Assembly: GCA_049999805.1 (NCBI GenBank)
Contig: JBNGIO010006333.1
Location: 566,792-627,869, forward strand
Origin: Folioceros fuciformis
Lineage: Eukaryota
DNA: 61,078 nt
Direction of reading: 5' to 3'
The position numbers were made by a program, and so were the translations under genes. This document shows positions 30,714 through 60,895 of this stretch, piece by piece (positions within the stretch are counted from its first letter, which is position 1; each line of letters opens with the position of its first letter). The notes under the pieces were generated by a model, which did not search any database, was not told the DNA's origin, and worked only from the letters and a program-made list of their open reading frames with translations.

Positions 30714-31333
30714 GGCGGCAGGTGGCAGATGGCAGGCCGCGAGGCAGGAAGGCGGGAAGGCGGGGAGGCGGGAAGAGAGTTCGGCAGACTCAGAAGAGCT
30801 CAGTTGGGTATTTAGGGCTCGGCCCGCGACCTTCGCTGTGAAAACCGTAGACCGTTCCGGTCCTGATATTTGAAAAGCCCGTCCGACTACACCACTTCGA
30901 GTAGGTCAGTACATATTTCGTTACTGTCCTGACCACGAAGCGATAGTGCGTGCATGCATGAGCCATATGCTTGTGTGCATATGTACATATACGGGACAAA
31001 AACTTGGCCTCTTCATTCTTCTGATAAGCATGGCTCAGGCCTCGCCCCTCACGCGGAGCTCCATCTGTCAGCAGTTGTCGGGGTACGTCGTAGAGAATGC
31101 CGTGTTTAAATGCTCCTTGGGAACAAGCGAGTTGGAAATGTGAGCCGTAGTCGACTTGGGCAATTTCGTTGAAGCCTAAACTGCAGTGTGGTCTCGCTGC
31201 TGCCGGTGTTGGCGGAGGAGCGAGAGTATGAGATTGGACGGTACATCACTAGGTGGGCCTCGTGTAGTGTAGGGGCATGTGGAGAGTGAAGGCTGCTGCT
31301 GGCATTTGATCTTGGACTCCCTGGGACGAGAGA

Positions 31334-36880: not shown

Positions 36881-37284
36881 TTCACTCACACCCAATTACT
36901 CCTGTGTCCTTTTTTCCGTGCCAGTCGGACTCGTAAGTTGTGCCGCCTCACGACGGCGTGGTTGAGTGCATCTCAACGTACACCTTGCCCGACCGGTACT
37001 GAACTAGCACTGTCACCTCCTGGCCAAGTGCACTAAATGTATATCCCTTTTCAGTAAAGGAAAGCATTGGAGTTTCCTACTCAATTTCCCTCTGGCAATT
37101 CTGTATTTGCATACATCATTGTGCTATTGCCTAGTACAGATGGGTTATTTTTCTTTTGGTGTATTCGTCCTAGAGATGGGTGATATCCACCACTCATGCA
37201 CACTCCCAGTCCTGAGCATGGTGCCATGGCCAGCATTGTTTGCGGTTGCGGTCCGCATCATTCTGCGAGACCGCTGCCAGCAAT

Positions 37285-39090
37285 ATGGCCACGGAATGGC
37301 AACTGGAACCGTAGTGCAGAGGATTCTACGAGAACTTTTGCTCACCTCACAGTAAAGACAACCGCTAGAACTCAACCATATCCCCAGGCTCGGCCGTGTC
37401 GTGATCTCGTTACTTCCAACAATGTCGCTGTGGAAGGATTTTCCAGCGATGGTTGTGGCCAAGACCAGCAGCTGGAATTCCTGTGGCGACAGTTTCTCCT
37501 GGATCCTACCATGTGGCGGGACACCTGGCGAGATAAGAATACCTCCCGTTCGCCTGGCTTCCTGCTTAAGGGGTCCGGCGGGCTTCTGAGGGGAAAAGGC
37601 ATGTCCAAGCCAGCTTGGGTGGACGGGCAGCTTGTTTCTTGGGATACACAGATGAGCTACGGTGCCTCTTTTTTCGGATAAGCCCAAGCCCGAGACGCCT
37701 GCAGGATGTCAAATATGCGTCTCCACTGCTGTGACCGTGAGCACCCTATGCCAGCAGGGGAAGATCACTGAGGCATTTGGAGCACTGGAATCTCTGGCCG
37801 AGACAGACTTTCCTATCTGTGTCACTGTAGTATACTGCGGTAAAGGCGTGTGCAGTTAAGAAGGATTTGGTTGTGGGGCGACGAGTTGGTGAGCTAGAAG
37901 AGGCCATGGATGTGTGCATCAGAGTGGATAAACCAGATGCCTTCATGCGGGGTTCTATAACCTCCGCACATGCTAAACATAGCAATCCTATGAAGGCTAT
38001 ACAATTGTACCATGAGGTGCGTAGGTCAGGGTTGAAGGCGGATGCTCACGTCCTCGTGGCTGCCCTTCAAGCCTGTGCTCTTGGTGCGGACTTGGAATCT
38101 GGCCTTGATGTATGTCTGGCAGAAGGGCCTTGTTGTGGCTGACCGTATCACGTTTTCCTGCCTTCTGAAAGCCTGTGCAGGTACCCGTGACCGTCAGAAG
38201 GGCAGGCACTTGCACTCACAGACTGTCGAAAGAGGCCTGCTAGGGAACATACTGGTTGGCACCTGCCTGGTGGACATGTATGCAAAATGTGGCGAACTAC
38301 AAGTTGCTAATTGGGTGTTTCCAAGTTTAGCTGCAAAGGATGCAGTGACATGGACGGCCCTGATTTCTGGGTATGCGGGACAAGGGCTCGGTCAACAGAC
38401 GCTTGTTCTGTGTGGACAAATGGAGGAGGAGGGCCTGGTTCGGGCTGACCATATAACCTTTGCGTGCCTTCTGAAGGCCTGTGCAGGCACCGGTGCCTTA
38501 CAGAAGGGCAGGCAGCTCCACTCACAGATTGTGGAAAGAGGATTGCTAGGGAACATACTGGTTGGCATCTGCCTGTTGGACATGTATGCAAAATGTGGTG
38601 AATTGGAAGATGCAAGTGGTGTATTATATCTTGGCCACAAAGGATGGGGTGACATAGGCGGCCCTGATTGCTGGATATGCACAACAATGTCCCGGCCTTG
38701 ACGCGCTTGTATTGTATTGTATTAACAAATGGATCAGGAGGGCTTAAGTGTGGCTGACCATGTTACTTGTGTTTTCCATGTGCTGAAGGCATTTGCTGGC
38801 ACTGGTGAGTAGCAGAAGGGCAGGCAGCTGCATTCACAGATCGTGGAAAGAGAACTGGTAGAAAACATACCTGTTGGCAACTGCCTAGTGGACATGTACG
38901 CATGCTGAGAAATTAGCTCTGGCCTGTGGTCTAATGAACACGCCGAGTGGCAAACCTCTGCTGGTAACGAAGAATCTACGCATGTGCAGTGACTCCCGCA
39001 GTTCTACCAAGATCATGTCAAGGGTTGAAAAGAGGCAGATTGTTGAAAGTGCCCACGAAAAGGATCATCGATTGGATTACATGGTGGCAG
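37285..39090 (+). pseudogene. Degenerate PDF-motif/PLS-PPR/DYW:KP gene (copy 1)
   Basis: MATEWQ start homologous to MATVWQ, a degenerate PDF motif (FLWRQFLLDPTMWRDTWRDKNTSRSPGF), PLS repeats split across frames by stops and deletions, and a truncated DYW region (AEKLALACGLMNTPSGKPLLVTKNLRMCSDSRS). Confidence 0.88.
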
Positions 39091-39422
39091 GAAGCATACG
39101 AGTCACTATCCGTCTACCCGGCTGCAGATTTGCAAGACAACTCAGCAAACTCGGCTCACGGATGGACGATATCTCAGGGAGTCGAAACTCAACAAAATAT
39201 GGCGACACGTATCATTTAAGGGGAGAAGATAGTGTACGCCAGATGTCTGTAAGGCTTTCTGCATGCTACTCGCCTGCAACGGGATGTCATCCCACTTTTT
39301 TGCATTTTGTGTAATTTGGTAGATCTGATCTTCAACTTTCCATATGTCCCATGCGGCAAGAATTTGCGACCTTCACTGTTACAAGGGGCATAGTTCGGGA
39401 TATCTAGTGTGACAGGACAATG

Positions 39423-41414
39423 TTATTGTCTCGAGACAAGGTGCAGACTCCATAGAGGGACTGAGTATATTAGGATGCTAGGCAGCAGTGCACACGTGAT
39501 GGATAACACAATGTAGGCGTAGGCACGCCAGGACCTGTCTCCTTGGTGCATCATGTGCACCTCGACCACGAATGTGGAGACAGTGCTCATGCATCCCATG
39601 AGTCCAAGCTGCAGAGATCCCGCAAATAGGGTAGCATTCCCATTGTTGACCTGGAACATAGGCCAAGGCCGGCAATGAGAAAAGTGTTTCATGAAAGCGT
39701 CAAAGGTTAATGTTGAATCGATTGAGAAGCGACGGTTGAGGTTTATGACATTTACCACAATTCTCATAGTGCCCAGGCCCGCATCCAACCATGACGCAAT
39801 AATGTTCGCAAGAAGAGTGCCAACGGGCAACCATTTAATCCAATGCTTTGATCCGATGCCCTGACCATTCAGCCGGGCCAGATGCCACCTTGCCCAGACA
39901 CCAAGAGGTGCCACCACGCAAGCCAGCCAGAGTTTTATTTGATCCATATGCAGCACGGTGAGAACCATAGATGCCACCCACATACCACCAGCTAGAAGTG
40001 AGAAGAACACAAAAAACTTCCATCTGCGGGCAAAGTGATATTCGGCACTCCTCGACAGCCTTCCCACGTCCTTCTCAGCTATTCTCCCTCGCAAAGAGTG
40101 GATGAAACCTAGCAGTGCCCTGGCAGAGTCCATGCCGAAAACGAGAGACATCCATGATAGCTGCATACCTTGGATTGACCAACCATAAGACTGTCAGATT
40201 TTGACCACCCACAGAACCGGCAGCCAAATATCTGAATTCATGAGCGAAAAGAGGAACATACCAACGAGAATGCCGACAAGAGCATGGACCCAGCGGCCCC
40301 CAGTGAGTAGTTCAAGCATGTGCTGGTTCCAGGATGCAAATGTGGTAATGCTGCCCATAAGTCCAGTTGATAAGCCCACAGCCAAGACCTCCGAGTAACG
40401 TGAAATGTGCTGCTTCAAAGTGACGCCCACCCATCCCATAAAAAAGGACCCAACCTGCGAAAGGCAAGAGAAACCATCAACAACGACCTGGATTCCGAAA
40501 GGTGACGGACCGAATCCCCAAAATTGCCAGTACACACCATGTTTGCCGGCAAATCAGTGAAAAGTGCACTCCTATCCCCAGTGACGCCGGCCACTTTCGG
40601 GCCAAACAAAATTTGTAGTCCGTATCTTATGAGCACCTGGACATGCAGTCAAAACCACGTGACGGCGTAAGAGGAGAGCTCAAAGTTGTCATTCTCTCTT
40701 TCAGGATCCTCGTAATGAGTACCATGACATGATCCTCCCTGCAACGAGACCCTCTACCGTTAGCAACGTCTTCAACTAACCAAGCCGTTTACGTACCCCT
40801 AGCATCCCGAACACGGCGAGATGAGCGAGGGTCGACACGTACTCAAGGATTGGAGGCAACTTGCGTGCATCAATCTGACAGAAAAGGCGATAAAATCTGA
40901 CATTGTTACATTATTCCACAAAAAAAAAAAAAACGAATCCAGGGAAATGCGCCGGTGCGAGTGTGGAGAAACCTGTCCTCACCACAGGTTCTGGTTGCAG
41001 AGACGACGCCTTCTCCAGAGGTTGCTCATCACCCACTCTCCTGGACCAGACAACCTCGCCTCCATCAGCCAACCTACATCGTTGAGCGGATGTTGCGGCG
41101 TCGGGCAATCCATGCGCCGGAACCGGCAGTGGAAGTGGCGCAGACGCATCGTGGCTCGTGAACAGGTCTTGCCGGGATGGCCATACCCTAGAGAGGGGAC
41201 CTGAAGAAAAACTTCCGTCGCTCCTGGCCTCAAGACGACCAGAGTCGCCGGCAGTGGCTTCTAGGTGATCCTCCTCGTCCACGGATAACCGTGGTATTCC
41301 AAATGAACGCCTGGAGCTGCCTGAGAGCCGTCTCGCAGCTTCGGGATCCCGGTACCTGTCCGCCAATTCGAAAGCACCGCTGTCGGATGATTCCTGGTCC
41401 GCCATTCGAGCCAT
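39423..41414 (-). CDS. FEX1: Fluoride exporter FEX (two fused CrcB/Fluc domains), several exons
   Basis: HLAVFGMLG/VLIRYGLQILFGP, DLPANM/GSFFMGW, GLSTGLMGSITTFASWNQ, APLGVWARWHLARLNG, GTLLANI, GLMGCMSTVSTF. The ATG at 41414 is tentative. Confidence 0.9.
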
Positions 41415-42830: not shown

Positions 42831-45800
42831 TCACGGTCGACCCTCACAACTACAACGACCAGCTGGGAATCGATGCACACGGTATCCGTCCCTTACAACG
42901 ATGTCTCCGTTTCCGACCCTGGACATGATCTCCATGGACCTGTGACACTCACTGCACATGCGTAGATTCTCTTGCACCAGCAGAGGTGTGCCACTCGGAG
43001 TGTTAACGAGAGAGCTACTTAACACCATACGCCAGAGCTAGTTTTTCGGCATGTCCACATAGTGCGTCTTCCTTTTCCATATCAGAAACTGGCTTCAACA
43101 CCAGCTTTGCGTGTGGAACGTGGCCCCCTTCCTGCTTCAGACGTGCACTATTTCTCTCTACCCTCACCGCAATTTCTTCTCTACTTCCTCCCACCACAAA
43201 CGTTTGTACCTGCGTTTTCACTTCAATGCCTGCCACTGCAGGTTTTTTATGAGCTCCTGCTGCCAATCTGTCTGTTTCGATCCTCTCCGCATCGCTCCAC
43301 GTACCTGCATCTGCATAGGCATTGGCCATGAGCACATATGCAGATGCCTGCTGAGGCTCCAGTCTCACAAGGATTTCGAAACATCAAGTGGCTCTCTCCA
43401 AATCCACGTGATTTTTGTAGGCATGGAGCAACGACCTCAATCCCACAACAATATTCTGACCCTCAAAAGATAGTAGTGTCTTCTCTGCCTCTTCTAAGCG
43501 GCCTGCTCGCCCAAGAGGATCAACCATGCAGGTGTAATGCTCGATAGTAGGTTTGATGCCATGGCGATCGACCATGGAGTTTAAGTACTAACGACCCTCA
43601 TCCACCAGTCCCTCATGACTGCACGCTGCTAAAAGGCAGGTGAAAGTAGTATCGTCAAGCTGGACAACGGCGACCAACATCTCTTCAAAACACGCTCCCG
43701 CCTTGTGACCTTCGTTACAAGCACCACACCCAAATATCAGGGCATTCCAGGTCACCACATCTTTTGAGACTAAGCTGTCAACAACACGGCGTGCCTCTTC
43801 CAGCTCGCCACGTTTTGCATATATGTCCAAGAGGCAGGTGCCGACCAGTACGTTGTTAACCATCCCTTTGTCCACAATCTGGGAGCGCAGCTGCCTGCCC
43901 ATCTGTAAGGCACCGGCGCTTGGACAGGACTTCAGAAGGCACGCAAAGGTAACATCGTCACCCAGACTGAAGCCCTCCTGTTCCATTTGTCCATACAGAA
44001 CAAGCGCTTCTTGACCAAGCCCGTGCTGGGAATATCCGGCAATCAGGGCATTCCATGTCACCACGTCCTTTGTGACCAAGCTGTCAAAGACCTTGCGTGC
44101 AGCTTCCAATTCGCCACATTTTGCATATCCAGCTATAAGGGCATTCCATGTGACCATGTCCTTCGTGGACAAGCTGTCAAAAACCCTGCGTGCATCTTCC
44201 AGTTCGCCGCATTTTGCATACATGTCCACCAAGCAGGTGCCAACCAGTACATTATTTAGCAGTCCTCTTTCCACAATCTGCGAGTGCAGCTGCTTGCCCT
44301 CGTGTAAGGCGTGAATGCTTGCACAGGCCCTCAGAAGGCAGGAAAAAGTAACATGGTCAGCCACAACCAAGCCCTCTTGCTCCATTTACGCATACAGAAC
44401 AAGCGCTTCTTGACCGAGCCCTTCTTGCGCATACCCAGCTATAAGGGCATTCCATATAGGAAGAGCTTTAGTGGCTAAACTGTCAAAAACCCGGCGCCCC
44501 TCTTCCAATTCACCACATTTGGCATACAGTCCACCAGGCAGGTGCCAACCAGTACGTTATCTAGGAGGCCCTCCTGTTCCATTTGTACATACAACACAAG
44601 CGCGTCTTGACCAAACCCTTGTTGTGCACCCACCAATCATGGCCGTCCAGGTCACCACGTCTTTTGTGACTAAGCCGTCAAAAACCTGCCGTCCCTCTTC
44701 CAGGTCACCACATTTGGCATACATATCCACCAGGGAGGTGCCACCCAATACGTTATCTAGCAGTCCTCTCTCCACAATCTGTGAGTGCAGCTGCTTGCCC
44801 TTCTGCAAGGCACCAGCGCTTGCACAGGCCTTCAGAAGGCAGGCAAAAGTAACAGGGTCACCCACAATCTGGTCCTCCGGCTCCATGCGTCCATAAAGGA
44901 CGAGTGCCTCTTGAACAAGCCCTTGCTGTGCATACCCAGCAATGGGGGCATTCCATGTCGCCACCTTCTTTGAGTCCAAACTGTCGAAAACCTGACGTGC
45001 TTCTTCCAATTCACCACACTTTGCATAGCCAGCTATGAGGGCCGTCCATGTCACCGCATCCTTTGTGGTCAAGCTGTCAAACACTTGGCGTGCATCTGCC
45101 ACATTTTGCATACGTCCAGTAGGCAAGTGCCAACTAGTATGTTATCTTGCAACCCTTTTTCCACAATCTGCAAGTGCAACTGCCTGCCCTTCTGTAGGGC
45201 ACCAGTACTTGCACACGCCGTCAGAAGGCAAGTGAAAGTGACCTGGTCAACCACGATTAGGCCCTCCTGCTCCATTCGTTCATGCAGAAGAAGCGCTTCT
45301 TGGCCGAGCCCTTGCTGTGCATACCCAGCAATCAAGGCCGTCCATGTCACCGCATCCTTTGTGGCCAAGCTGTCAAAAACCCCGCGTGCATCTCTCAAAA
45401 CTCCACATTTTGCATACATGTCCACCAGGGAGGTGCCAACAAACACGTTAGGAGGAATGCCACTGTCCAACACATCAGAATGCACTTTTCTGCCGGATTC
45501 CAAGTCCGTAACGAGTGCACACGCTTGAAGGGCAGCTACAAAGACGTGAGCATCCGACTTCAAACCTGAGCTATGCACCTCATGAAACAGCTTTATAGCA
45601 TCATGAGCTTTCCCATGTTTAGCGTACGCGGATAGAATGGAACCCCACATGAAAGCATCTGGTTTCCCCACCCTGGTGAACACATCCATGCCCTCCTGTG
45701 GCCTACCTCCAAATGCTTACATGCTCGAGATATGGTTTCCCAAGTATGTATTTGACTCGTGCCCAAGTCTGAGACACAGATCATGAACTCGTCGCCCCAC

Positions 45801-46434
45801 AACCAGATTATTTTTGGCTGCACACCCTTTTAGCACGGTGTACAAGAGAGACACAGGGACACGACAGTCTATCTGCGCAAGAGATTATAGGGCTCCAGAT
45901 GCCTCAGTGAGGTTCCCCTGCTGGCATAACTTGCTCACGGTTTCGGCCGTCAGGAAGCCCGTTTCCGACCTAGCATGCCAGCCAGGTTCAGGCTCCTTCG
46001 GGGAGCTACGCTTAGAGGGAGACTCCATGATCCATCTCAACATCCCAAGAGACCAGCTGGTCATCCACCCAAGCTGGCTTGAGAATGCTGTCTAACCAGA
46101 AGACCTCACCGGACCCTTTGCGCCGGAAGTCAGGCGAACGGGATCTCTTCTTCCGTCGTCTGTTGTCCCACCACACGGTCGGGTCCAGAAAGAATTCTCG
46201 CCACAAGAGCTCCTGCTCCTGCTTCTGGCGACGAGCATCGGTGGACAATCCTTCCACAGCCACACAATATTTTGCCGGAAGTGCAGGGTTCGTTCCAATG
46301 CAGCACCTGGAGGCGTGGTTGCGTTCCCGCGATTGACTCCCGTCGATGGGATGAGAGGGAGCTTCTCGCAGACCATCTGTACAGCCGGCAATTTGCTGGG
46401 CGTAAAACGCATCCAGTCGCCATGCTAGAACCAT
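42831..46434 (-). pseudogene. Frameshifted PDF-motif/PLS-PPR/E/DYW:KP gene ending in GRP (copy 2)
   Basis: MVLAWRLD start, intact PDF motif (LLWREFFLDPTVWWDNRRRKKRSRSPDFRRKGSGEVFWL), PLS repeats in at least 5 broken ORFs, then KKPAVAGIEV, CGHAEKLALAYG and ...CSECH...CSCEGRP. Confidence 0.9.
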
Positions 46435-47509
46435 ATTATCCGCAACCGGATATTGTCCGCAACGAAGTCATGGCCCCACTGGAAGAGAGGACTTGTGAAC
46501 CTGCCCCACAATGCATTCCTTTGCCACCACCTCCAAGGGTTGAGGAATACTTGATCAATGACTAATAGAATCTTAAGTAGGATTAAGGATCAATTGCTCA
46601 CTGACAGAATCTCAAACGGGATTAAACATCACTTGCTCACTGGCAAAAATCTCAAATGGGGTTAGTGACAATGTCATTCAGTGCTAAAACCTAATCCACC
46701 TTCACCTAAAAAGAAAGATTAACACTGAGGGAAACACCGTTAAGTAGAGTCTTAAGGGCGCCCCTTGTAAGAAAATAAGCCACCCTCATTTGTCAAGGAG
46801 AAAATAACGTCGTAAATGGCAATTTGAATTTGTTGCACCCTTGTAAAGGGCATAGGGCAATGAGCAAGGTGGATCCATGGGTTAGGAAGACAAAGACTAG
46901 ACTAGGCTTAAGTGAAATCTCACTATAGTAGAAAAAGAGGTTGAAGGTTGGTGCCATTTAAAAAGCCAAAATGCAAGTCCAAGAAGCAAACACCCTACTC
47001 TCTTACATGTTGTTGTATTATTTTCTTTTGCATTACTTTCTAAAGTGAGCTTTTAGAGACTTCAAGCATTTATCGCAGAGAACAAGGATATTTAGGCATC
47101 TGTCCTAAAGAAAAAGGATATGTAGACATAGGTAGGCCTTTTCTAGGATCCTTCCAGAGGTGTCTCTGAGCTCATAATGTCCGAAGAAAAGTAATCTCTC
47201 ACCAACCATAAGGGCTCTTGTAAGGAAAATGTGCAGTCTTTAAAGGACTCCAAAATGCAAGATCCCTAATGACGAAGCAAAACAGCAACTCAAACCCTAG
47301 AAATGCCGATTATATGATGGCCTCCTTAGCCTAGTAAACACCATTGCATGCTAATGCAATTAGGAGAGAAACTTATCGCCTTACTAAATCTCTAGCAATA
47401 TGCTCTGTATTTGAAGGTGTTCAAGCTAATAATGTCAACCATTGTATACATAACTTGCTAATAGCAACGTTTTAGGCTAGACAAGAATGCCAAGCAACCA
47501 AAGCATGTG

Positions 47510-48581: not shown

Positions 48582-48867
48582 TGACGCGCGAAACGAGCGT
48601 GCCAGTGAAGCGAGGACCCGATTGACGAGCGCCGGAAAGTGAACAAATCGCAGACGCCGAGAGCAAGAGTGTGGGCGCCGTATTGACCCCGGCTGAGGAA
48701 GTCAGGATCTCGATCAGACGTAGGAGGACATTCCTGTTATGAGCGACAGAGGCCCAAGTTGTGGACATACGATTCGGAAGAAGTTGTGAGGGTAACCTGT
48801 AGAATCTACATTTCATTTCGACCAATTTCAAACTAGCTTTTTGGTTGATTTGGATCGATTTTGAAGC

Positions 48868-51800
48868 ATGACGTCCTCAGAAAACGTCATGTTCAATATC
48901 GAGAAGTTAGATGGTACTAACTTCCCGTTCTGGAAAGAACAAGTGTATAATGTTCTAGTACAGAAGAAGCAGATCAAACCCATCAAGCTGCTAGGAGTGA
49001 AACCTGTTAGCATGACTCAGGATGAGTGGCAGGATCTAGATGAGATTGCTAGGTCTACCATCATGCTAACAGTGTCGAAGTCGGTCTACTTCAACGTGAA
49101 AGACAAGACCACAAGTTTCGAGCTATGGCAGAAGTTGTGTGACTTGTATGAGAAGCAAAGTGCGGCTTCTCAGGTGTATTGGTTGAAACAGCTGGTGGAC
49201 TTGAAGATGAAGGAAGGGACGAGGATGTCCGATCATCTGAATGAGTTCAATACCATTTTCAGCCAGCTCTCATCTCAAGGTATCTCGTTCCCAGATTCCG
49301 TGAGAGCTATGTTTCTGTTGGTCACATTACCAGAGAGCTGGGACACCTTCCGCACGGCTCTGAGTAATTCCGCTCCTGCCAGTGGTTTTACCGTTGTAAA
49401 TGTAGAAGGTAGCCTGTTAACAGAGGAGGTGAACAGGAAGAATATGGAACCTTCGAAAGGTTCTAATGCCCTCATGGTGAGAGGAAGGTCCACTTCAAAG
49501 GGGAAGTACAAGGAGCGAAGTTCTTCCCGTAGCAAATCTCGTAGTCGTAACAATGTTGAGTGTTACCATTGTCACAAGAAGGGTCACATCAGAAGGGACT
49601 GCGAGAAGTCCAAGAAGGAAAAAGGCAAGGAGAAGAAGCAGAGCGACAACAAGGCAGATTCGAGTATTGAGTGTGATGAGGTGAACTCTGTTGACGATGA
49701 AGATGTTCTTATCTCTTTTTCTTTTGGTTCTGCACAACTGACAGCCATGGAGAGTCACTTATTCTCTAATTGGATAATTGACTCTGGAGCATCTTTCCAT
49801 GTTACTCCGCATAGGGAGTGGTTTAGCACTTATGATGCTACTAGGAAAGGATGTGTTCGGCTTGGAAATAACTACGCGTGCGAGATAGCAGGCGTTGGTG
49901 ATGTGCAGCTGAAGTTCGACAACGGATCTTCATTCACACTAAAGGATGTCAGGCATGTTCCGAAGTTGACCAAAAGCATGATTAGCGTAGGGCAGTTGGA
50001 TGACGCTGGCTACCACTGTTGGTTTGGAGATCGTTCGTGGAAGATCTCCAAAGGTTCTCTTGTGATAGCTCGTGGATTGAAGTGTGGCACTTTGTACTCA
50101 CTTCAGGTAACCACTGTCAAGGATCATGTGATTTGTGTAGCGGAACAGCCAAGTGTTTCTTTGTGGCATAGTCGGTTAGGACATATGTCTCAGAAAGGAA
50201 TGAAGATCTTATCTCGTTTTGGTTACGTCCCTGCTCTTGACTTCTCCGATTTCTCCGTGTGTGAGCACTGTTTGTATGGAAAACAGACGAAGTCACCACA
50301 TGGAGCAAGAGGTAAACACAAAAGTAAACCTCTTGAATTGGTTCACAGTGACATTTGTGGACCTATGCCCACTGTGTCGTTAGGCGGTGCATCTTATTTT
50401 GCCACTTTCATTGATGACTTCTCACGCAAGGTGTGGGTTTATCCTTTGAGGAAAAAGGATGATGTTATGATAGTGTTTCAAAAATTCGTCACCCTTGTGG
50501 AGAATGAGTCTGGCCTCCGGCTGAAGTGTCTAAGGACAGACAATGGGGGAGAGTATGTCTCGAAGGCTTTCCAGTCATTCTGTGATTCCAAGGGAATCAA
50601 GAGAGAATTGACTGCACCGTATACTCCTCCCCAGAATGGTGTGGCTGAGCGGATGAANNNNNNNNNNNNNNNNNNNNNNNNNNNNNNNNNNNNNNNNNNN
50701 NNNNNNNNNNNNNNNNNNNNNNNNNNNNNNNNNNNNNNNNNNNNNNNNNNNNNNNNNAACTCTGGATTGCCTAACGGATTTTGGGCAGAAGCGGTGGTTA
50801 CTGCAGTGCATCTTATTAACAGATCTCCTAATAGGGCTGTGGATGAACAGGTTCCAGAGGAGATGTGGTATGGAAAGAAGCCGTCATACAAACATCTACG
50901 AGTGTTTGGCTGCGAGGCATACTACCATGTTCCGAAGGAGTTTCGCGACAAGTTGGCTCCTAAGTCAAGAAAATGTATTTTTCTTGGCTATGGTGAATCT
51001 GGTGAGATGGGATACCGTCTNNNNNNNNNNNNNNNNNNNNNNNNNNNNNNNNNNNNNNNNNNNNNNNNNNNNNNNNNNNNNNNNNNNNNNNNNNNNNNNN
51101 NNNNNNNNNNNNNNNNNNNNATGAGACCAAGATGCACAAGAAGCCTACTCCAACTGTGGAGGTGCGACGGGTGGTCTTCCAAGAAGATGGACTTGACCGT
51201 CCTACGCAGGCTGAACATCGTGATGTGCAGGAACAAGTTCCTCCACTTGTAGACGAGGAGAGAGTGCAACCAGCTCCGGTCGAGGCGCCAGTGCTTCGTA
51301 GGTCAGGAAGGATCTCACGTCCTCTTCACAGGTATGTTGCATCTCTTGATTATGTCATGCTAACGGATTGTGGGGAGCCCTCTTGTTACCAAGAGGCNNN
51401 NNNNNNNNNNNNNNNNNNNNNNNNNNNNNNNNNNNNNNNNNNNNNNNNNNNNNNNNNNNNNNNNNNNNNNNNNNNNNNNNNNNNNNNNNNNNNNNNNGAT
51501 TGTGGGGAGCCCTCTTGTTACCAAGAGGCCATGTCAGTAACTGATAAAAACAAGTGGGAGAAGGCGATGCAGTCGCAGATGGATTCGCTCCATAAGAACC
51601 AAACTTGGGAGTTGGTTCGATTGCCTAAGGGCAAGAAGGCGTTGCCATGCAAATGGGTGTATAAGATGAAGGACATACCCCATTATGGCAAACCCAAGTA
51701 CAAGGCACGATTGGTTGCTAAAGGTTTTAAGCAACAGCAAGGTATTGACTTTGATGAGATTTTCTCACCAGTTGTCAAAATGACTACCTTGAGATGTGTT

Positions 51801-53075
51801 CTTGGTCTGGTTGCGAGGAACGACATGGAACTTGTCCAGATGGATGTGAAGTCGGCATTTCTGCATGGTGATCTCCAGGAAGAGGTATACATGCAGCAAC
51901 CAGAGGGTTTCATTGAGAAGGGCAAAGAGAGTCTGGTGTGCAAGTTAAAGAAGAGCCTTTATGGTTTGAAGCAGGCACCCAGGGAGTGGTATTTCAAGTT
52001 TCACTCATTTATGCTTTCTCAAGGCTACAAGCGTAGCGATATGGATCATTGCCTCTATACGAAGCAAGCTAAGGATGGAAGCTTGCTCATTCTAGTCCTC
52101 TATGTGGATGATATGCTAATTGCTGGGACTAACATTGATGAGATTTCAGCGTTGCAGTCAAAGTTGAATGGTCGCTTTGACATGACAGACTTGGGAGAGG
52201 CAAGCCATATTCTTGGCATGCGTATTCGTCGAGACAGACAGAAGCGTTTGATGTACTTGTCTCAGACAGAATACATTAACAAGGTGCTTCAACGTTTCAA
52301 TATGGAGAAGGGGAAGGTCTTAAGTACTCCGTTGCCTCCATATGTGAAACTTTCGAGCAAGGATTGCCCAAGTTCTGCGGAGGATAAAGCTGAAATGGAG
52401 AAGGTTCCATACTCATCAGCTGTAGGGAGTTTGATGTATGCAATGATTGCTACACGTCCTGACATTGCTTTTGCAGTGGGAGTGGTTAGCAGGTTCATGT
52501 CAAACCTTGGCAGGAAGCATTGGGAGGCAGTGAAAGGAGTTATGAGGTATTTGAATGGTACAAAAGCTTTGTGCTTATGTTTTGGTAGTGAAGATGCATC
52601 TGTAGTGGGATATACGGATGCTGATTATACAGGGGATATGGACAAAAGGAGGTCCACATCAGGATATGTCTTCATGTGCACTGGAGGGGCAGTCTCATGG
52701 CGATCTCGTTTGCAATCGTGCATAACGCTATCTACCATAGAGGTCGAGTATGTTGCAGCGACTGAGGCTTGCAAGGAAGCCATGTGGCTTGCTCGTTTAG
52801 TGGGAGATTTGGGGATCAAGGGTGAGCTGCCAGTGTTGCATTGTGATAGCCAAAGTGCTATCCAGTTGGCGAAGAATCCAGTGTTTTATGCGAAGACCAA
52901 ACATGTGGAAGTGAAGTATCACTTCATTCGAGAGGTGTTGGAAGACAAGAGGGTACAACTTGTCAAAGTTCACACTAGTCAGAACCCTGCATATGTTCTT
53001 ACCAAGGGGCTCTCTACGGAGCAATTCGCACAAGCTCGGACACTCATGGGCATGAGCTATACCACTCTCTTATGA
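48868..53075 (+). CDS. Copia gag-pol polyprotein, interrupted by three N gaps
   Basis: Zinc knuckle CYHCHKKGHIRRDC, protease WIIDSGASFH, integrase LWHSRLGH / VHSDICGP / LRTDNGGEY / PQNGVAERM, RT KARLVAKGF / QMDVKSAFLHG / LYVDDML, RNase H GYTDAD...HCDSQSAI. Confidence 0.92.
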
Positions 53076-54312: not shown

Positions 54313-57285
54313 TCATGGTCGACCATCACAACTGCAACAGCCAGCTGTGAACCGATGCACCCGGAACCCATCTCTTACAACAATGTCTCTCTTTTCAACC
54401 CTCGACATGATCTCCGTGGAACTGTGGCAGTCACTGCACATGCGTAGATTCTTTGTTACTAGCAGAGGTGCGCCACTGGGAGTGTTCAAGAGACCATAAG
54501 CCAGAGCTAGTTTCTCAGCATGCCCGCAAAGTGCGTCTTCCTTTTCCTTCTCAGAAACTGGTTTCAACACCAACTTCGTGTGCGGTATGTGGCCCCCTTC
54601 TTGCTTCACACGCGCATTCATGCTTTCTACCATGAGTGCAATTTCTTCTCTGTTTTCTCCCACCACAAATGTATGTCCCTGCTCCTCGACCTCAATACCC
54701 GCCACCGCAGGTTTCTTCTTAGCTCCTGCTGCCATTCGCTGTGATTCAATCCTCTTTACATCAATCCACCTACCTGCATCTGCATACGCGTTGGCCATCA
54801 GCACATACGCTGACGCATGCTGAGGCTCCAATATAACAAGGCTTTCGAAACAACGAATCGCCCTCTCTAAATCCCCAAAATGTTTGCAAGCATTCAGCAA
54901 AGACCTCAACCCAACGGCAATACTTTGACCTCCACATGATAATAACAAGTTCTCTGCCTCTTCTAAGTTGCCTGCACGTCCGAGAAGATCAACCATGCAA
55001 ATGTAATGCTCGCTAGTAGGTTTCATGTCATGACGTTCAACCATGGAATTGAAGTGCTTGCGACCCTCATCCACCAGTCCCTCATGACTGCATGCTGCTA
55101 ACACACTAGCAAAAGTAGCATCATCAGGCTGAATACCAGCGGCTAACATCTCCTCAAAACAAGCTAATGCCTTGTGACCTTCATCACATGTACCACACCC
55201 AGATATGAGTGCATTCCATGTTGTCACATCCTTTGTGCCTAAACTGTCAAAAACCCGGCGTGCCTCTTCTAGTTCACCACATTTTGCATACATGTCCACC
55301 AGGCCGGTGCTAGTCAATGTATCCTCCAGCAGTCCTCTATCCTCAATCTGTGATTGCAACCGCCTGCCCTTCTTTAAGGAACCAGTGCTTGCACAAGCCT
55401 TCAGCAGGCAGGCAAAAGTGACATGGTCAGCCACAATCAGGCCTTCCTGCTCCATTTGCGCATGCAGAACGAGGGCATCTTGGCCAAACCCTTGTTGTGC
55501 ATACGCAGCAATCAGGGCAGTCCATGTGACAACATTTTTTCTGGTCAAGCTGTCAAAAACCTCACGCGCATCTGTCAGTTCACCACATTTCGCATACATG
55601 TCCACCAGGGAGGTGCCTACCACAATGTTACTTAGAAGACCGCGTTCCACAATTTTCGAATGCAACTGCCTTCCCTTCTGTAAGGCACCAGTGCTTGCAC
55701 AGGCCTTCAGGAGGCATGCAAACGTCACATGGTCAGCCACAATCCGGGCATCCTGCTCCATTTGTCCATACAGAAACAGTGCGTCTTGCACAAGCCCTTG
55801 CTGTGAATACCCAGCAATCAGGGCATTCCATGTTACAACATTCTTTGTGGACAAGCTGTCAAAGATCTGGCGTGCACGTTCCAGTTCACCACATTTCGCA
55901 TACCCAACCATGAGGGAATTCCAGGTGATAACATCCTTGGAGGACAGGCCGTCGAAAACCTCCTGAGCTGCTTCCAAGTCACCACATTTTGCATACATGT
56001 CAACCAGGCAGTTGCCAACCAGCAAGTTATCGAGGAGTCCTCGTTCCACAATCTGTGCGTGCAGCTGCCTGCCCTTCTGTAAGGAACCCGTGCTTGCACA
56101 GGCCTTCAGAAGGCAAGCGAAAGTCACATGGTCAGCCACAATCAGGCCCTCCCTCTTCATTTGTCCATACAGAGCAATCGCATCCTGGCCAAGCCCTTGT
56201 TGTCCATACCCCCCAATAAGGGCATTCCATGTCACAACATCCTTGGAGGTCAAACTGTCAAAAACCCTGCGTGCATCGCTCAGTTCGCCACATTTTGCGT
56301 ACATGTCCACCAAGCAGTTGCCAACAAACAAGTCGGGAGGAATGCCACTGTGCAACACATCACAGTGCACTGTTCTGCCAGATTCCAAGTCCGCAGCGAG
56401 GCCACAAGCTTGGAGGGCAGCCACAAAGACGTGCGAATCTGCCTTAACGCCTGAGCGTTGCATCTCGTGGTACAACTGTATAGCCTCGTTGGGTTTCCCA
56501 TGTTTAGCATATGCAGAGATTATGGAACCCCACATGAAGGCATCTGGTTTGCCCACCCTGGTGAACACATCCATGGCCTCCCGTAGCCGACCTCCACATG
56601 CGTACATGCGCAAGATATGGTTCCCCAAGTATGTACTTGATTCGTACCCAAGTTCGACAGAGAGATCATGGACTCGTCGCCCTACACGCAGATCCTTCTT
56701 GGCAGCACACACTTTTAGCACATTAGACAACAGGGACTGAGAGATGGGACATTTCGTCTGCACCAGAGATTCCAGGGCTCCAAGCGCTTCAGTCAGGTTC
56801 CCCTGCTGACAAAATGCGCTCACGGTTGCAGGCGTTAAGAAGCTTGTTTCCCACTCTGCATGCGTGCCAGGCTCAGGCTTATCCCTACCGCCCAAATTCC
56901 ACTTGGCAGAAGAGTCACCATAAGATGCAAGCTGCTCGTCTACCCATGCCGGCTTGAACATGCTGTTTAACCAGAGGACCTCACCGGACCCTTTACGCCG
57001 GAAGTCAGGCGAACGGGAGCTCTTCTTATCTCGCCTGTTGTCCCACCACATGTCAGGGTCCAGGAAAAGTTGTCGCCACAAGAGCTCTTGTTCGTGACTA
57101 CGAGCATCGCTAGAGAATTCCTCCGCAGCCACACATCCTTCAGGAAGTGCTAATCTCCTGAAGGCTTGGTTGTATACCAGCGGTTGACTCCCTAAGGTAA
57201 GGTGAGCAGGAACTGGTCGTGGACTCTCCTTAAACCCAACGATTTTTTGGGTCCACGACAAATGAGGTTGCCATACTGTGGCCAT
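54313..57285 (-). CDS. Intronless PLS-class PPR protein with E1/E2 and a DYW:KP domain ending in GRP (putative U-to-C editing factor), N-terminal OSB-like PDF motif, ~990 aa
   Basis: Uninterrupted ORF from the first ATG at 57285. About 18 P/L/S/SS repeats, then KKKPAVAGIEV, CGHAEKLALAYG, KNLRMCSDCH and CSCDGRP*. Confidence 0.92.
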   Translation of the reverse strand: MATVWQPHLSWTQKIVGFKESPRPVPAHLTLGSQPLVYNQAFRRLALPEGCVAAEEFSSDARSHEQELLWRQLFLDPDMWWDNRRDKKSSRSPDFRRKGSGEVLWLNSMFKPAWVDEQLASYGDSSAKWNLGGRDKPEPGTHAEWETSFLTPATVSAFCQQGNLTEALGALESLVQTKCPISQSLLSNVLKVCAAKKDLRVGRRVHDLSVELGYESSTYLGNHILRMYACGGRLREAMDVFTRVGKPDAFMWGSIISAYAKHGKPNEAIQLYHEMQRSGVKADSHVFVAALQACGLAADLESGRTVHCDVLHSGIPPDLFVGNCLVDMYAKCGELSDARRVFDSLTSKDVVTWNALIGGYGQQGLGQDAIALYGQMKREGLIVADHVTFACLLKACASTGSLQKGRQLHAQIVERGLLDNLLVGNCLVDMYAKCGDLEAAQEVFDGLSSKDVITWNSLMVGYAKCGELERARQIFDSLSTKNVVTWNALIAGYSQQGLVQDALFLYGQMEQDARIVADHVTFACLLKACASTGALQKGRQLHSKIVERGLLSNIVVGTSLVDMYAKCGELTDAREVFDSLTRKNVVTWTALIAAYAQQGFGQDALVLHAQMEQEGLIVADHVTFACLLKACASTGSLKKGRRLQSQIEDRGLLEDTLTSTGLVDMYAKCGELEEARRVFDSLGTKDVTTWNALISGCGTCDEGHKALACFEEMLAAGIQPDDATFASVLAACSHEGLVDEGRKHFNSMVERHDMKPTSEHYICMVDLLGRAGNLEEAENLLLSCGGQSIAVGLRSLLNACKHFGDLERAIRCFESLVILEPQHASAYVLMANAYADAGRWIDVKRIESQRMAAGAKKKPAVAGIEVEEQGHTFVVGENREEIALMVESMNARVKQEGGHIPHTKLVLKPVSEKEKEDALCGHAEKLALAYGLLNTPSGAPLLVTKNLRMCSDCHSSTEIMSRVEKRDIVVRDGFRVHRFTAGCCSCDGRP

Positions 57286-57895
57286 CTTACAGGCACTGCT
57301 CGATGAGGCGCAAACCAAAATATGCAGACCGTGCCAGGATGCCTGGAACTCGGAGTGTACATGACCACAGCCCGCTTGGCAAGCACAGTGCAGACGGTGT
57401 AATAAGGCTCCCACGAGGACACCAACACGATAATGTACCCGTCGTCCCGTTTAACAGTAGAACAGTGGCCCAGGCGGCGGAGTAGCCTTGACGCGCATCC
57501 GCTCTCTTGCAGGAGGGCCGGCCCCACCATTATTCTGTACACCGTTGTGGATTGTGTACGAGAAGCCGCGACCTGGGCTTGCTGCGGTCCTGTCGATACC
57601 CAACCACCAGTAAGGCTGTGGGTAAAAAGTATGTATCCCTGCCAAAGTTGATGGCCATCGGTGTCGATATGTTAGCCTCGGCATAGTCCTTGTCTGCCAT
57701 CCTGCTGATGCACGGTAAGACTCGTCAATTTTTTTATTGAAGTGTCGCGGCCATGATCATTTGCGTTAGACAACATCCGCATTGGGCTTGCTAAGGCTAA
57801 AAGGGCGTTTGAGGTCATGCACATTCTTAGCACCTTCGCATCCTGCCAGAAGTTGCCTACTTTGCTATGCAGTTTCCGAGAGCGGTGCCTATAAG

Positions 57896-60895
57896 ATGGC
57901 CACAGTGTGGCAACCTGATTTGTCGTGCACCCAACAGAGTGTTGGGTGTACAGAGATTCGACAAGGAGTTCCAGCTCACCTCGCCGTGGAGGGTCAACCT
58001 CCTCCATGCAACCAAGCCTCCAGATGCACGAGCGTAAGGAAATCAGCAATTCCGACTGTATGGGTGGCTGGGGAAGGATTTCACAGGCATGGCCGTCGCC
58101 AGGATCAGGAGCTCTTGTGGCGACAATTTTTTCTAGACCCTACGTTGTGGTGGGACAACCGGCGGCAAAAGAAGAGCTCCCGCTCGCCTGACTTCCGCCG
58201 TAAAGGGTCCGGGGATGTCCTATGGTTAAACCATATGTTGAAGCCTGCTTGGGTGGATGAGCAGCTCGTGTCCTTGGATATCCGGATGGGTCATTGTTCC
58301 TCTCCTTTGACGTGGAACTCGATGGGTAAGGCTGAGTCTGGGAGTCGTTCAGGATTGGAGATGGGTGTTGTAACCCTTGTGACCGTGAGCACATTATGTC
58401 AAGAGGGCAAGCTTACTGAGGCTTTGGGAGTCCTGGAAGATCTGGCGCAGACAGACTATCCTATTTCGCAGTCTCTGTTGTACACTGTGGTAAAAGTATG
58501 TGCAGCTAAAAAAGATCTGGTTGTAGGGCGTCGAGTTCATGATCTGTGTGTCAACCTTGGATACGAGTCAAGTACATACTTGGGAAACCATATCTTGCGA
58601 ATGTATGCATGTGTAGGTAGGCTAGAGGAGGCCATGGATGTGTTCACCAGGGTAGGTAGCCCAGATGTCTTCATGTGGGGCTCCATAATCTCCGCACATG
58701 CTAAACATGGGAAGCCTAAGGAGGCTATACAATTGTACCATGAGATGCGAAGGTCAGGTTTGAAGGCGGATGCCCACGTCTTTGTGGCTGCCCTCCAAGC
58801 TTGTGCACTTGCTGCGGACTTGGAATCTGGCAGAAAAGTGCATTGTGATGTGTTGCGCAGTGGCAGTCCTCCTAACGTGTTTGTCGGCAATTGCCTGGTG
58901 GACATGTATGCCAAATGTGGCGAACTGAGGGATGCACGCGGGGTTTTCGACAGATTGGACAAGAAGGATGTGGTGACATGGAATGCCCTTGTAGCTGGGT
59001 ATGCAAAATGTGGGGACCTAGAAGGCGCACGACAGATTTTTGACGGCCTGGCCACAAAGGACGTGGTGACATGGAATGCTATGATTGCTGGGTATGCACA
59101 GCAAGGCCTTGACCAAGACGCGTTTGTTTTGTATGGGCAAATGGAGCAGCAAGGCTTAGTTGCGGCTAACCATGTTACTTTCGCTTCACTTCTGACCGCA
59201 TGTGCAAGCACTGGTGCTTTACAGAAGGGGAGGCAGTTGCACACACAGATTGTGAAACGAGGGCTGCTAAATAACGTACTGGTTGGCACCTGCCTGGTGG
59301 ACATGTATGCAAAATGTGGGGAACTGAGAGATGCACACAGGGTGTTCGACAGCTTGGCCACAAAGGCCGTGGTGACATGGAATGCCCTTATAGTTGGGTA
59401 TGCACAACAGGGACTTGGACAAGATGCGCTTGCTCTGTATGGACAAATGCAGGAGGAGGGACAAGTTGTGGCTGACCATGTTACTCTCTCTTGCCTTCTA
59501 AAGGCCTGTGCAAGCAGTGGTGCCTTACAGAAGGGCAGGCAGCTACACTCTCAGATTATGAAAAGAGGACTACTCGATAACATGCTGGTTGGCACCTCCC
59601 TAGTCGATATGTATGCAAAATGTGGCGAAGTGGAAAGTGCACGCCTGGTGTTTGACAGTTTGGCCACAAAGGACGTGGTGACATGGACGGCCCTGATTTC
59701 GGGTTATGCACAGCGAAGTTTTCCTCAAGAGGCGCTTGCTCTGTATGGGCAAATGGAAGAGGAGGGCCTGACAGTCGCTGACCATGTGACATTTTCTTGC
59801 CTTCTGAATGCATGTGGAAGCGCTGGTGCCTTGCAGACGGGCAGGCAGCTGCACTCACAGATTGTGGAAAGAGGTTTGATAAATAATAGACTGATTGGCA
59901 CCTGCCTGGTGGACATGTATGCGAAATGTGGTGAGCTGGAAGAAGCACGCCGGGTTTTTGATACCTTGGCCACCAAGGATGTGGCGACATGGAACGCCCT
60001 GATATCTGGGTGTGGCGCTTGTGATGAAGGACAGAAGGCATTAGCTTGTTTTGAAGAGATGTTAGCCGCTGGTATTCGGCCTGACGATGCTACTTTTATT
60101 TGTTTGTTAGTGGCATGCAGTCACGAGGGACTGGTGAACGAGGGTCGCAAGCACTTCAATTCGATGGTTGAACGTCATGGCAAAGAACCTACTACTGAGC
60201 ATTACATTTGCATGATTGATCTTCTCGGTCGCGCAGGGCACTTAGATGAGGCAGAGAAGTTGCTACTATCATGTGAGGTAGGAAGTAATGCTGTCGGGTT
60301 GAGGTCGTTGCTCAATGCGTGCAAAAATTACGGAGACATCGAGAGGGCGACTCGGTGTTTCGAAAGCCTTGTTGCGTTGGAGCCTCAGCACGCGTCGGCG
60401 TATGTGCTCATGGCCAATGCTTATGCAGACGCAGGTAGGTGGAGTGATGTAAAGAGGATTGAATCGCTGAGAAAGGCGGCTGGAGCTCAGAAGAAAGCTG
60501 CAGTGGCCGGAATTGAGGTCGAGCAGGAGGTACATACTTTTGTTGTGGGGGAAAACAGAGATGATCTTGTGCTCAAACTAGAGAGCACGAACGCACGTTT
60601 GAAGCGGGAAGGGGGCCACGTACCCGTCACAAAAGTGGTGTTGAAGCCAGTGTCAGAGAAGGAAAAGGAAGATGTGCTTTGCGGGCATGCTGAAAAGCTA
60701 GCTCTGGCGTATGGTCTATTGCACACTCCAAGTGGCACACCTCTTTTGGTAACGAAGAATCTTCGCATGTGCAGTGACTGCCACAGCTCCACGGAGATCA
60801 TGTCAAGGGTTGAGAAGAGAGCTATTGTTGTAAGGGATGGGTACCGTGTGCATCGGTTTGCAGCAGGTTGGTGCAGTTGCAAGGGTCGGCCTTGA
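57896..60895 (+). CDS. Intronless PLS-class PPR protein with E1/E2 and a DYW:KP-like domain ending in GRP (putative U-to-C editing factor), N-terminal OSB-like PDF motif, ~999 aa
   Basis: Uninterrupted ORF from the first ATG at 57896. About 18 P/L/S/SS repeats, then QKKAAVAGIEV, CGHAEKLALAYG, KNLRMCSDCH and CSCKGRP*. Confidence 0.92.
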   Translation: MATVWQPDLSCTQQSVGCTEIRQGVPAHLAVEGQPPPCNQASRCTSVRKSAIPTVWVAGEGFHRHGRRQDQELLWRQFFLDPTLWWDNRRQKKSSRSPDFRRKGSGDVLWLNHMLKPAWVDEQLVSLDIRMGHCSSPLTWNSMGKAESGSRSGLEMGVVTLVTVSTLCQEGKLTEALGVLEDLAQTDYPISQSLLYTVVKVCAAKKDLVVGRRVHDLCVNLGYESSTYLGNHILRMYACVGRLEEAMDVFTRVGSPDVFMWGSIISAHAKHGKPKEAIQLYHEMRRSGLKADAHVFVAALQACALAADLESGRKVHCDVLRSGSPPNVFVGNCLVDMYAKCGELRDARGVFDRLDKKDVVTWNALVAGYAKCGDLEGARQIFDGLATKDVVTWNAMIAGYAQQGLDQDAFVLYGQMEQQGLVAANHVTFASLLTACASTGALQKGRQLHTQIVKRGLLNNVLVGTCLVDMYAKCGELRDAHRVFDSLATKAVVTWNALIVGYAQQGLGQDALALYGQMQEEGQVVADHVTLSCLLKACASSGALQKGRQLHSQIMKRGLLDNMLVGTSLVDMYAKCGEVESARLVFDSLATKDVVTWTALISGYAQRSFPQEALALYGQMEEEGLTVADHVTFSCLLNACGSAGALQTGRQLHSQIVERGLINNRLIGTCLVDMYAKCGELEEARRVFDTLATKDVATWNALISGCGACDEGQKALACFEEMLAAGIRPDDATFICLLVACSHEGLVNEGRKHFNSMVERHGKEPTTEHYICMIDLLGRAGHLDEAEKLLLSCEVGSNAVGLRSLLNACKNYGDIERATRCFESLVALEPQHASAYVLMANAYADAGRWSDVKRIESLRKAAGAQKKAAVAGIEVEQEVHTFVVGENRDDLVLKLESTNARLKREGGHVPVTKVVLKPVSEKEKEDVLCGHAEKLALAYGLLHTPSGTPLLVTKNLRMCSDCHSSTEIMSRVEKRAIVVRDGYRVHRFAAGWCSCKGRP

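Follow-up and report, generated by a model that had tools for sequence, protein, structure and literature searches.

An OSB-type PDF motif precedes the PPR tract in two candidate U-to-C editing factors of Folioceros fuciformis and in PLS-class proteins of other seed-free land plants

In this work, we analysed a 61,078-nt stretch of Folioceros fuciformis DNA (GenBank assembly GCA_049999805.1, contig JBNGIO010006333.1, positions 566,792 to 627,869 of the forward strand; hereafter the window, with positions counted from its first letter). The window is plant nuclear DNA and holds two intact genes for pentatricopeptide repeat (PPR) proteins, genes A and B, together with two pseudogene copies, copies 3 and 4. 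Profile and pairwise comparisons identify a block of about 58 amino acids (aa) that precedes the PPR tract of both proteins as a genuine PDF motif, homologous to that of the OSB proteins, which are organellar binders of single-stranded DNA in plants. The motif and the enzyme family that carries it here are known, and the architecture that joins them seems to be undescribed, and it is both widespread and conserved. The module is most likely a tethered binder of single-stranded nucleic acid, which would keep the editor at single-stranded DNA of the nucleoid or on flanking RNA.

Identity of the conserved block

When the 62-aa block alone was searched with HMMER against 1.84 billion representative proteins, 565 matches were obtained at E ≤ 0.001 and 113 at E ≤ 1e-10, far more than chance would produce. 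Among the best 150 of these 565, all but one (149 of 150) carry one to thirteen PDF copies when scanned with our own profile, and most are proteins of 200–500 aa with tandem PDF copies at the C-terminus. Named matches in the phmmer search include an OSB1-like protein of Populus (P0032, E 1.4e-21), OSB3 of Amborella (P0013, E 1.8e-35) and an 'organellar single-stranded DNA binding protein 3' of Striga (P0024, E 3.6e-25). A word-indexed search with an alignment of PDF motifs only (alignment A3) gave 890 matches at E ≤ 0.001, with OSB1, OSB2, OSB3 and Arabidopsis entries among the best 120. In BLASTP, the block aligned with each of the two PDFs of P0032, with identities of 45% and 47% (E 2e-16 and 3e-15). 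Comparison by hhalign of a profile of three window copies with 12 OSB-type proteins gave a probability of 99.4% (E 6.1e-22, 61 columns), the match falling exactly on the last PDF of the OSB-type alignment. HMMER matches to named OSBs, hhalign and BLASTP thus all agree with the original prediction, an earlier reading of the letters alone, which had called the block an OSB-type PDF motif and had asked for a profile match to OSB PDFs; that match is significant.

A core made up of W5, P12, W15, D17, R19, K22, P28-D29-F30, K33, L39-W40, P45 and W47-V48 is present at frequencies of 0.81–1.00, computed both in 83 PPR-fused and in 554 OSB-type PDFs, and genes A and B keep every one of these positions. 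When aligned with 26 other PDFs, both genes and copy 3 show the PDF triplet, and also W, FF, P, WWDNR, K, LW, P and WV, in the matching columns. The module contains 8 W/F/Y and 10 R/K residues in 58 aa. Pfam recognized no family on the block and gave a single noise match over 29 PDF blocks; Pfam has no model for the PDF motif, and domain surveys are likely to miss it for this reason. A word-indexed protein search with the block alone found no match among 5 candidates, a word-indexed search with alignment A2 found none among proteins of 1711–4885 aa, and the best ESM Atlas score for the block (0.76) was under the useful level.

The PDF motif has been described as a stretch of 50 amino acids, named for Pro-Asp-Phe, that is sufficient for the single-stranded DNA (ssDNA) binding of AtOSB1, in which the oligonucleotide/oligosaccharide-binding (OB) fold seems to have lost this activity (PMC6963530). 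Another account calls the motif 'responsible for ssDNA binding' (PMC6451138). OSB1 and OSB2 are reported to favour ssDNA over double-stranded DNA or RNA (PMC4166229), and OSB2, which is pTAC9, stands on a list of nucleoid core proteins (PMC10493611).

Proteins that carry the motif

Gene A (57896–60895, plus strand) is an intact intronless open reading frame (ORF) of 999 aa (P0001), as given by the ORF and its translation. Its layout is an N-terminal extension, the PDF, a linker, a PLS-type PPR tract, E motifs and a DYW:KP domain with a GRP end. The extension (residues 1–62, 57896–58081) is fast-evolving and modelled as disordered; it is probably an organelle presequence, with a putative role in targeting. 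The PDF motif follows at 58103–58279 (profile match, independent E value [i-E] 3.8e-24), and a linker of low model confidence and low paralogue identity (about residues 129–150, 58280–58345) leads to the PLS-class PPR tract and E motifs (58346–60475, by Pfam and motif parse), of which the first motif reads LCQEGKLTEAL. The DYW:KP domain of the GRP subgroup occupies 60476–60892 (Pfam, profile and alignment). Gene B (54313–57285, minus strand), an intact paralogue of 990 aa counted from the first ATG, has the same layout, with its PDF motif at 56923–57093 (profile match, i-E 2.3e-25) and its DYW:KP domain, containing KKPAVAGIEV, HAE and the GRP end, at 54316–54732 (profile and alignment).

Pfam found on gene A PPR families in 15 stretches (7.9e-94), E_motif (4.5e-14) and DYW_deaminase (1.6e-32). 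The PPR motifs parse into P, L and S types of 35–36, 35 and 31 aa, and the tract shows a tandem period of 306 nt, which is one P-L-S triplet. The C-terminal parts of both proteins were set against five DYW domains of the PG type in an alignment. Both proteins have HAE and CSDCH in the DYW-family domain; at the site of the PG box, A reads KKAAVAGIEV and B reads KKPAVAGIEV, and both show a four-residue gap at xHP, HAE for HSE, LRMC for LRV/IC and a GRP end. The published marks of DYW:KP are KP in place of the PG box, HAE, a missing xHP and M for V, and GRP is described as one of two hornwort DYW:KP variants (PMC9478123). By these features, genes A and B are PLS-E-DYW factors of the DYW:KP GRP subgroup and candidate U-to-C editing factors, and the window itself probably derives from a hornwort. 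The original prediction had taken the carriers for KP-type enzymes, and here Pfam (PPR-E-DYW) and the alignment (KP/GRP features) concur. The KP-box proline was lost in gene A (60476–60520) and retained in gene B (54690–54732) and in P0098, a match that is discussed below.

The resemblance of both proteins to the published GRP subgroup thus extends over the PLS tract, the E motifs and the DYW-family domain with HAE, LRMC, the missing xHP and GRP. They differ from it in KKAA rather than KKPA in the KP box of gene A and in what stands before the PLS tract, since the descriptions in the source paper start at the PLS tract and its designer proteins have a tag in place of the native N-terminus (PMC9478123). 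In that paper's own account, U-to-C activity is shown only for the designer proteins KP2, KP3 and KP6, and the designer GRP proteins KP2 and KP3 performed U-to-C editing in Escherichia coli at about 26% and 22% (PMC9478123).

The fifth and last residues of several P and S motifs differ between A (58346–60295) and B (54733–56830), and an extra S-like motif of 31 aa is found at residue 359 in A and at residue 453 in B. Because positions of the PPR code differ at several motifs, the two proteins probably read different RNA targets.

By domain content, the window's proteins carry the PDF motif yet are not OSB proteins, because an OB fold was not found and the PDF is N-terminal, followed by PPR, E and DYW. 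Pfam gave no match of PF00436 or any other OB family on P0001. What they share with the OSB proteins (Arabidopsis OSB1-4 and orthologues) is a motif of about 50–60 aa with the same core, nuclear encoding, presumable targeting to organelles and, across both groups, one to several tandem PDFs per protein. OSB proteins differ in having an SSB-like OB fold before their PDFs (PF00436 was found on 18 of the best 120 matches of the PDF-only search, and weakly on P0032), whereas the window's proteins have no OB match and a PDF N-terminal of a PPR-E-DYW editor. In addition, the PPR-fused PDFs group in a cluster or clusters of their own and have FF rather than LF or LV at columns 8–9.

Conservation within the window

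A PDF profile built from database matches was run over all six frames of the window and found exactly four copies of the block of about 58 aa, plus one noise match at E 6. All four stand upstream of both a PPR tract and either a DYW domain or its remnant. The four positions given in the original prediction were recovered by the profile within a few codons, and translation showed that the peptide quoted there is encoded where it was said to be. The possibility that the block is a reading-frame artefact was rejected, since the block occurs four times here and has hundreds of homologues.

Between genes A and B, the PDF block has 86% aa identity and a ratio of nonsynonymous to synonymous substitution rates (dN/dS) of 0.11 (dS 0.83). 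The N-terminal residues 1–70 have 49% identity and a dN/dS of 0.64, and the linker (residues 129–165) has 36% identity and a dN/dS of 0.69; the earlier observation of a block conserved better than what surrounds it therefore holds. For the remaining parts, dN/dS was 0.21 in the PPR tract, 0.12 in the E motifs and 0.14 in the DYW domain. For the PDF block alone, pairwise comparison among A, B and copy 3 gave 0.12, 0.13 (A with copy 3) and 0.22 (B with copy 3). The PDF block is under purifying selection as strong as that on the catalytic domain (0.11 against 0.14), while its flanks (0.64 and 0.69) are close to neutral.

Contigs of run X1 are identical to the window, one of them over 855 nt across 57790–58644 without a joint; since this run is not on record as RNA and its contigs also cover intergenic sequence, it gives no evidence of transcription or of splicing. 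Contigs of at least 90% similarity from runs X2 and X3, which come from other organisms, accumulate on the PDF-coding bins (58054–58306 and 56789–57041) and are scarce on the flanking bins; DNA closely similar to the PDF-coding sequence therefore exists in those organisms, although the summed depths do not give copy numbers.

Predicted fold

AlphaFold2 modelled the block, as 72 aa with an alignment of 46 rows, at a mean predicted local distance difference test score (pLDDT) of 91.2 and a predicted template modelling score of 0.76. A long helix is followed in this model by three short strands, set around a basic loop, and by a second helix. When the first 330 aa of gene A were modelled, residues 1–34, 36–62 and 134–151 had a pLDDT below 50, and the PDF (residues 63–130) and the PPR helices from residue 151 onwards had about 83–98. 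Because of this difference between the flanks and the two confident parts, the PDF is modelled as a separate folded unit behind a disordered N-terminus, flexibly linked to the PPR solenoid. The original prediction had raised the removal of the block with the transit peptide; in this model the block lies outside the low-confidence N-terminal stretch.

A sequence search of the Protein Data Bank (PDB) with the block gave only chance matches (E 0.26–1.2), and a profile search gave none at E ≤ 10. With the PDF model as query, Foldseek reached a best E of 3.2 against the PDB, a search of BFVD had a best E of 1.3, and a wide VIA-align search had a best Z of 4.2 and none of 5 or more. The predicted fold is thus unclassified, and the absence of a clear match does not make it new. 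A complex prediction with two copies of the 72-aa block scored 0.00 in both runs, in which the partner's own fold was uncertain, and is uninformative either way.

Distribution of the PDF-PPR fusion

Among 269 retrieved proteins, 44 combine PDF and PPR. Of the best 150 matches of the single-block search, 13 also have a PPR tract; of the best 120 of the 890 matches of the PDF-only search, 30 have Pfam PPR families, 28 of them from the lycophyte Diphasiastrum complanatum and four with DYW_deaminase. The sources of the fusions are Sphagnum compactum, Selaginella moellendorffii, Diphasiastrum, Ceratopteris richardii, Adiantum capillus-veneris and Pteridium aquilinum. As judged from its carriers in the window's lineage, Sphagnum, lycophytes and ferns, the fusion is old. 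These proteins, among them Selaginella XP_024517303.1 (P0086), Sphagnum P0134, the 28 of Diphasiastrum complanatum, Ceratopteris P0119 and P0151, Adiantum P0092 and P0041 and Pteridium P0188, stand in public databases, where they are annotated only as 'pentatricopeptide repeat-containing' or 'hypothetical'. No seed-plant protein with both PDF and PPR was seen among the best 150 and best 120 matches listed, and the seed-plant matches in these lists that could be named are OSB-type proteins or gene models that look merged.

A DYW domain is present in six of the 44 fusions. Besides the window's own genes, only P0098 is of the KP/GRP type; the other five (Sphagnum P0134 and Diphasiastrum P0187, P0207, P0230 and P0239) have a canonical PG box, HSE and a DYW end. 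The remaining 38 have no DYW match and are E-class or truncated. The original prediction had presented the fusion as one with putative U-to-C enzymes and had proposed a survey of whether the PDF goes with DYW:KP or DYW:PG. This special link was not supported: the motif occurs with both types, and only one of the 44 fusions beyond the window's genes is KP-type, against five of the PG type. The idea that the block is a KP-specific invention was accordingly rejected, PG-type and E-class carriers having been found. Since PG-type, E-class and KP proteins carry it alike, the PDF is, in seed-free land plants, an accessory of PLS-class PPR proteins in general. The window's genes share with these other PDF-PLS-PPR proteins the position of the PDF before the PLS tract, the PDF subfamily and, in many cases, the first motif LC.EG.L..A; the difference is that the others are mostly E-class without DYW or have a PG-type DYW, and that many have two or three PDFs rather than one.

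The PDF keeps a fixed place at the N-terminal (RNA 5′) end of the PPR tract: in 43 of the 44 fusions, every PDF (of one to three copies) comes before the tract, the exception, P0194, resembling two merged genes. The number of residues before the first PDF has a median of 60 (range 1–128). The first motif LC.EG.L..A, 14–37 aa after the last PDF, was found in 31 of 45 proteins (the window's genes included and P0194 left out), and this junction occurs in the window's genes, ferns and Diphasiastrum. Its carriers include P0183–P0265, P0004, P0092 and the window's genes. A second junction, PGT.QRS.FSWN directly after the PDF, was seen in Sphagnum and some Diphasiastrum proteins (P0134, P0213, P0223, P0224 and P0239), and each junction type spans plant phyla. 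ORFs in the Pteridium transcriptome hold PDF and PPR on one transcript (P0122, P0188, P0097 and P0102); in these fern transcripts, at least, the block is not spliced out, as the original prediction had considered it might be.

When 191 PDF blocks were placed on a tree, five changes of the label 'PPR-fused' were required, against a mean of 61 after shuffling, and none of 500 shuffles was as low. In a tree of 106 rows under a mixture model, two changes were required, and a single clade of all PPR-fused PDFs was not rejected by the approximately unbiased test (p-AU 0.853). The data fit one or two old fusions and do not prove that number, because the alignment has 60 columns and most forks are unresolved.

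In P0098 (residues 79–140), PDF positions that are otherwise nearly invariant are substituted (P to T, W to C, and RDF for PDF), an insertion of 2 aa is present, and constraint on the motif may have been relaxed in that lineage. Some seed-plant gene models have long PDF arrays (P0003 of Kingdonia with 13 PDFs; P0103, of 1920 aa, with 19 stretches), and others are odd fusions (P0053 of Coptis, OSB with kinesin; P0033 of Striga, OSB with an ICR2-like part). These four are probably merged gene models or local amplifications.

Possible roles of the PDF motif

The reading that we prefer, tentatively and with somewhat less than even confidence, is that the PDF, by binding ssDNA of the organelle nucleoid, brings the editor to the site of RNA synthesis. 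Import would be followed by removal of a presequence of about 60 aa, leaving the PDF in the mature protein, where a flexible linker of about 20–35 aa would join it to the first PPR motif. The PDF would bind single-stranded nucleic acid of any sequence, most probably ssDNA as OSB1 and OSB2 do, and would concentrate the editor on the nucleoid at transcription bubbles, at R-loops and wherever else strands are single. Nascent RNA would then offer the PPR tract its target, in which U would be converted to C by the DYW:KP domain, the PDF having no part in catalysis or site choice.

A number of points weigh against nucleoid anchoring. The preference for ssDNA is reported for Arabidopsis OSB1 and OSB2 only, by way of reviews. 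Designer GRP KP editors that lack the native N-terminus edit U-to-C in E. coli at about 22–26% (PMC9478123); because they work without it, the PDF would be dispensable for catalysis, and its contribution may be small or only quantitative; this counts against every helper role alike. The N-terminus lacks a strongly basic character, with a net charge of +2 in A and 0 in B, and P0098, the closest other KP member, is substituted at conserved PDF positions. The binding, localisation and editing roles of PDF-PPR proteins are all inferred, and genes A and B are known here from their sequence, their expression being putative. Finally, for an editor of RNA, anchoring to ssDNA would be less direct than binding to RNA.

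A more direct arrangement would be an RNA clamp, in which the PDF binds single-stranded RNA 5′ of the PPR footprint, adding sequence-independent affinity or keeping the site unfolded, with no role on DNA; we regard this as the nearest rival, somewhat less likely than the nucleoid anchor. PPR tracts run N-to-C along the RNA from 5′ to 3′, and an N-terminal PDF would therefore reach sequence upstream of the footprint. The position of the PDFs before the tract in 43 of 44 fusions, the flexible linker of the model, the abundance of aromatic and basic residues (8 W/F/Y and 10 R/K in 58 aa) and the fact that the substrate of the whole protein is RNA are all consistent with a clamp, and the arrays of two or three PDFs on Diphasiastrum and fern PPR proteins would scale its affinity. 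However, OSB1 and OSB2 are reported to prefer ssDNA over RNA (PMC4166229), and the conserved core is identical in PPR-fused and OSB-type PDFs. Long PLS tracts, moreover, are already tight binders, and added unspecific affinity could raise off-target editing.

It is unlikely, in our judgement, that the PDF is chiefly a protein-protein module that recruits or is recruited by a nucleoid or editosome protein (OSB, Whirly or RNA polymerase) or associates with itself, with nucleic-acid binding being secondary. The small compact fold with exposed aromatics in the model would suit such a function, seed-plant editing factors are described as depending on helper proteins, and AtOSB2 is reported to be a tetramer (PMC6963530). 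Yet no function other than ssDNA binding, for which the PDF suffices, is reported for the motif (PMC6963530), AtOSB2 is reported not to have bound the organellar DNA polymerase (PMC6451138), and no partner is known. Still less probable is that the block has no role in the mature editor, being removed with a long presequence, serving import or sorting only, or being a relic. The PDF does lie near the N-terminus (a median of 60 aa before the first PDF, range 1–128), the cleavage site is only inferred, and the designer editors function without the motif (PMC9478123). Against this stand a dN/dS of 0.11, equal to that of the catalytic domain, a core kept across the window's lineage, moss, lycophytes and ferns, and a confidently modelled fold, unlike that of the preceding residues. 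Arrays of two or three PDFs span 130–250 aa, which would be too long for a presequence, and the PDF of OSB proteins is described as working at the C-terminus of the mature protein (PMC13393729; PMC4166229).

Most improbable of all would be a reading in which the PDF delivers the protein to the non-template strand where this is displaced, that strand is read by the PPR tract with the same code, and the DYW domain acts during transcription on RNA as it emerges or, most boldly, converts bases of organelle DNA, the PDF being an ancestral helper in cis that was lost in seed plants. Reading of ssDNA by a PPR tract is conceivable, because designer P-type PPRs are reported to bind ssDNA by the RNA code (PMC12733224).

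Comparison with known systems and significance

PLS-class PPR editing factors are usually drawn as a transit peptide, a PLS tract, E motifs and a DYW domain. The fusion adds a fourth, strongly conserved module to many PLS-class editors in the seed-free lineages sampled. The original prediction knew of no functional description of such a fusion, and we found none in the literature that was searched; nor was any description of a PDF-PPR fusion found there, although an earlier mention, for example in supplementary tables, is possible. The strings WWDNR, PDFKHK and PDFRHK occurred in the searched literature only in an unrelated preprint. The Anthoceros angustus genome paper covers the PLS expansion without mention of OSB or single-strand binding. 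A recent OSB survey, as its selection is described, demanded both an OB fold and a PDF (PMC13393729), and it would have dropped the fusion proteins because of the required OB fold.

In the way it may work, the PDF can be likened to the MORF/RIP helpers of seed-plant editosomes, as a non-catalytic accessory that possibly raises the performance of a PLS editor. It differs from them in having no sequence relation, in being a motif that binds nucleic acid and in being fused in cis, the MORF proteins being separate polypeptides that bind the PPR tract. Seed-free plants are not known to have MORF-type helpers, and the impression gained from the matches listed is that the distributions of MORF and PDF-PPR proteins may be complementary, the latter being confined to seed-free plants.

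Should the PDF hold editors at the nucleoid or on flanking RNA, organellar transcription and editing would be physically linked through it, and it may help to explain how seed-free plants manage very many editing sites. The native PDF would then also be a candidate add-on for designer U-to-C editors, of which the GRP versions are reported to work at about 22–26% (PMC9478123). If, on the other hand, the PDF has no measurable effect, its deep conservation would need another explanation.

Other features of the window

Genes A and B stand head to head at the right end of the window, and both proteins start with MATVWQP. They form an inverted duplication, with inverted repeats of 75–82% identity spanning the whole coding region. 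The spacer between the divergent start codons (57286–57895) is presumably a shared promoter region. The arms of inverted repeat I10 lie at 57158–57301 and 57880–58023; similarity between the two genes stops 16 nt upstream of each ATG, and 578 unique nt separate the repeat arms.

Pseudogene copy 3 (42834–46467, minus strand) has an intact PDF (46045–46218, i-E 4.8e-21), immediately after which a stop and loss of frame occur, and its DYW domain is split over two frames, with matches at 43021–43263 and 42834–43031 (minus strand, frame broken). Pseudogene copy 4 (37184–39314, plus strand) has a decayed PDF (37475–37639, i-E 1.3e-10) with PGF for PDF and WR for WW, a short PPR tract and a partial DYW domain (38892–39071, plus strand) in which CxDCH is broken.

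Copy 3 and gene B are separated by a Copia-type retroelement (gag, integrase and RVT_2) and runs of N at 48865–53075. Copy 4 sits between a gene like that for an E1 ubiquitin-activating enzyme (ThiF, E1_FCCH and E1_4HB; 31310–36880, plus strand) and a CrcB/FEX-like gene (39423–40553, minus strand), and an LSM-domain gene is located at 30513–30905 (minus strand). Rfam gave no match and ARAGORN no tRNA in the window DNA. At 24049–24644, the non-coding sequence contains a tandem array of about six copies of a 40-nt unit, nested in higher-order periods of 184–264 nt.

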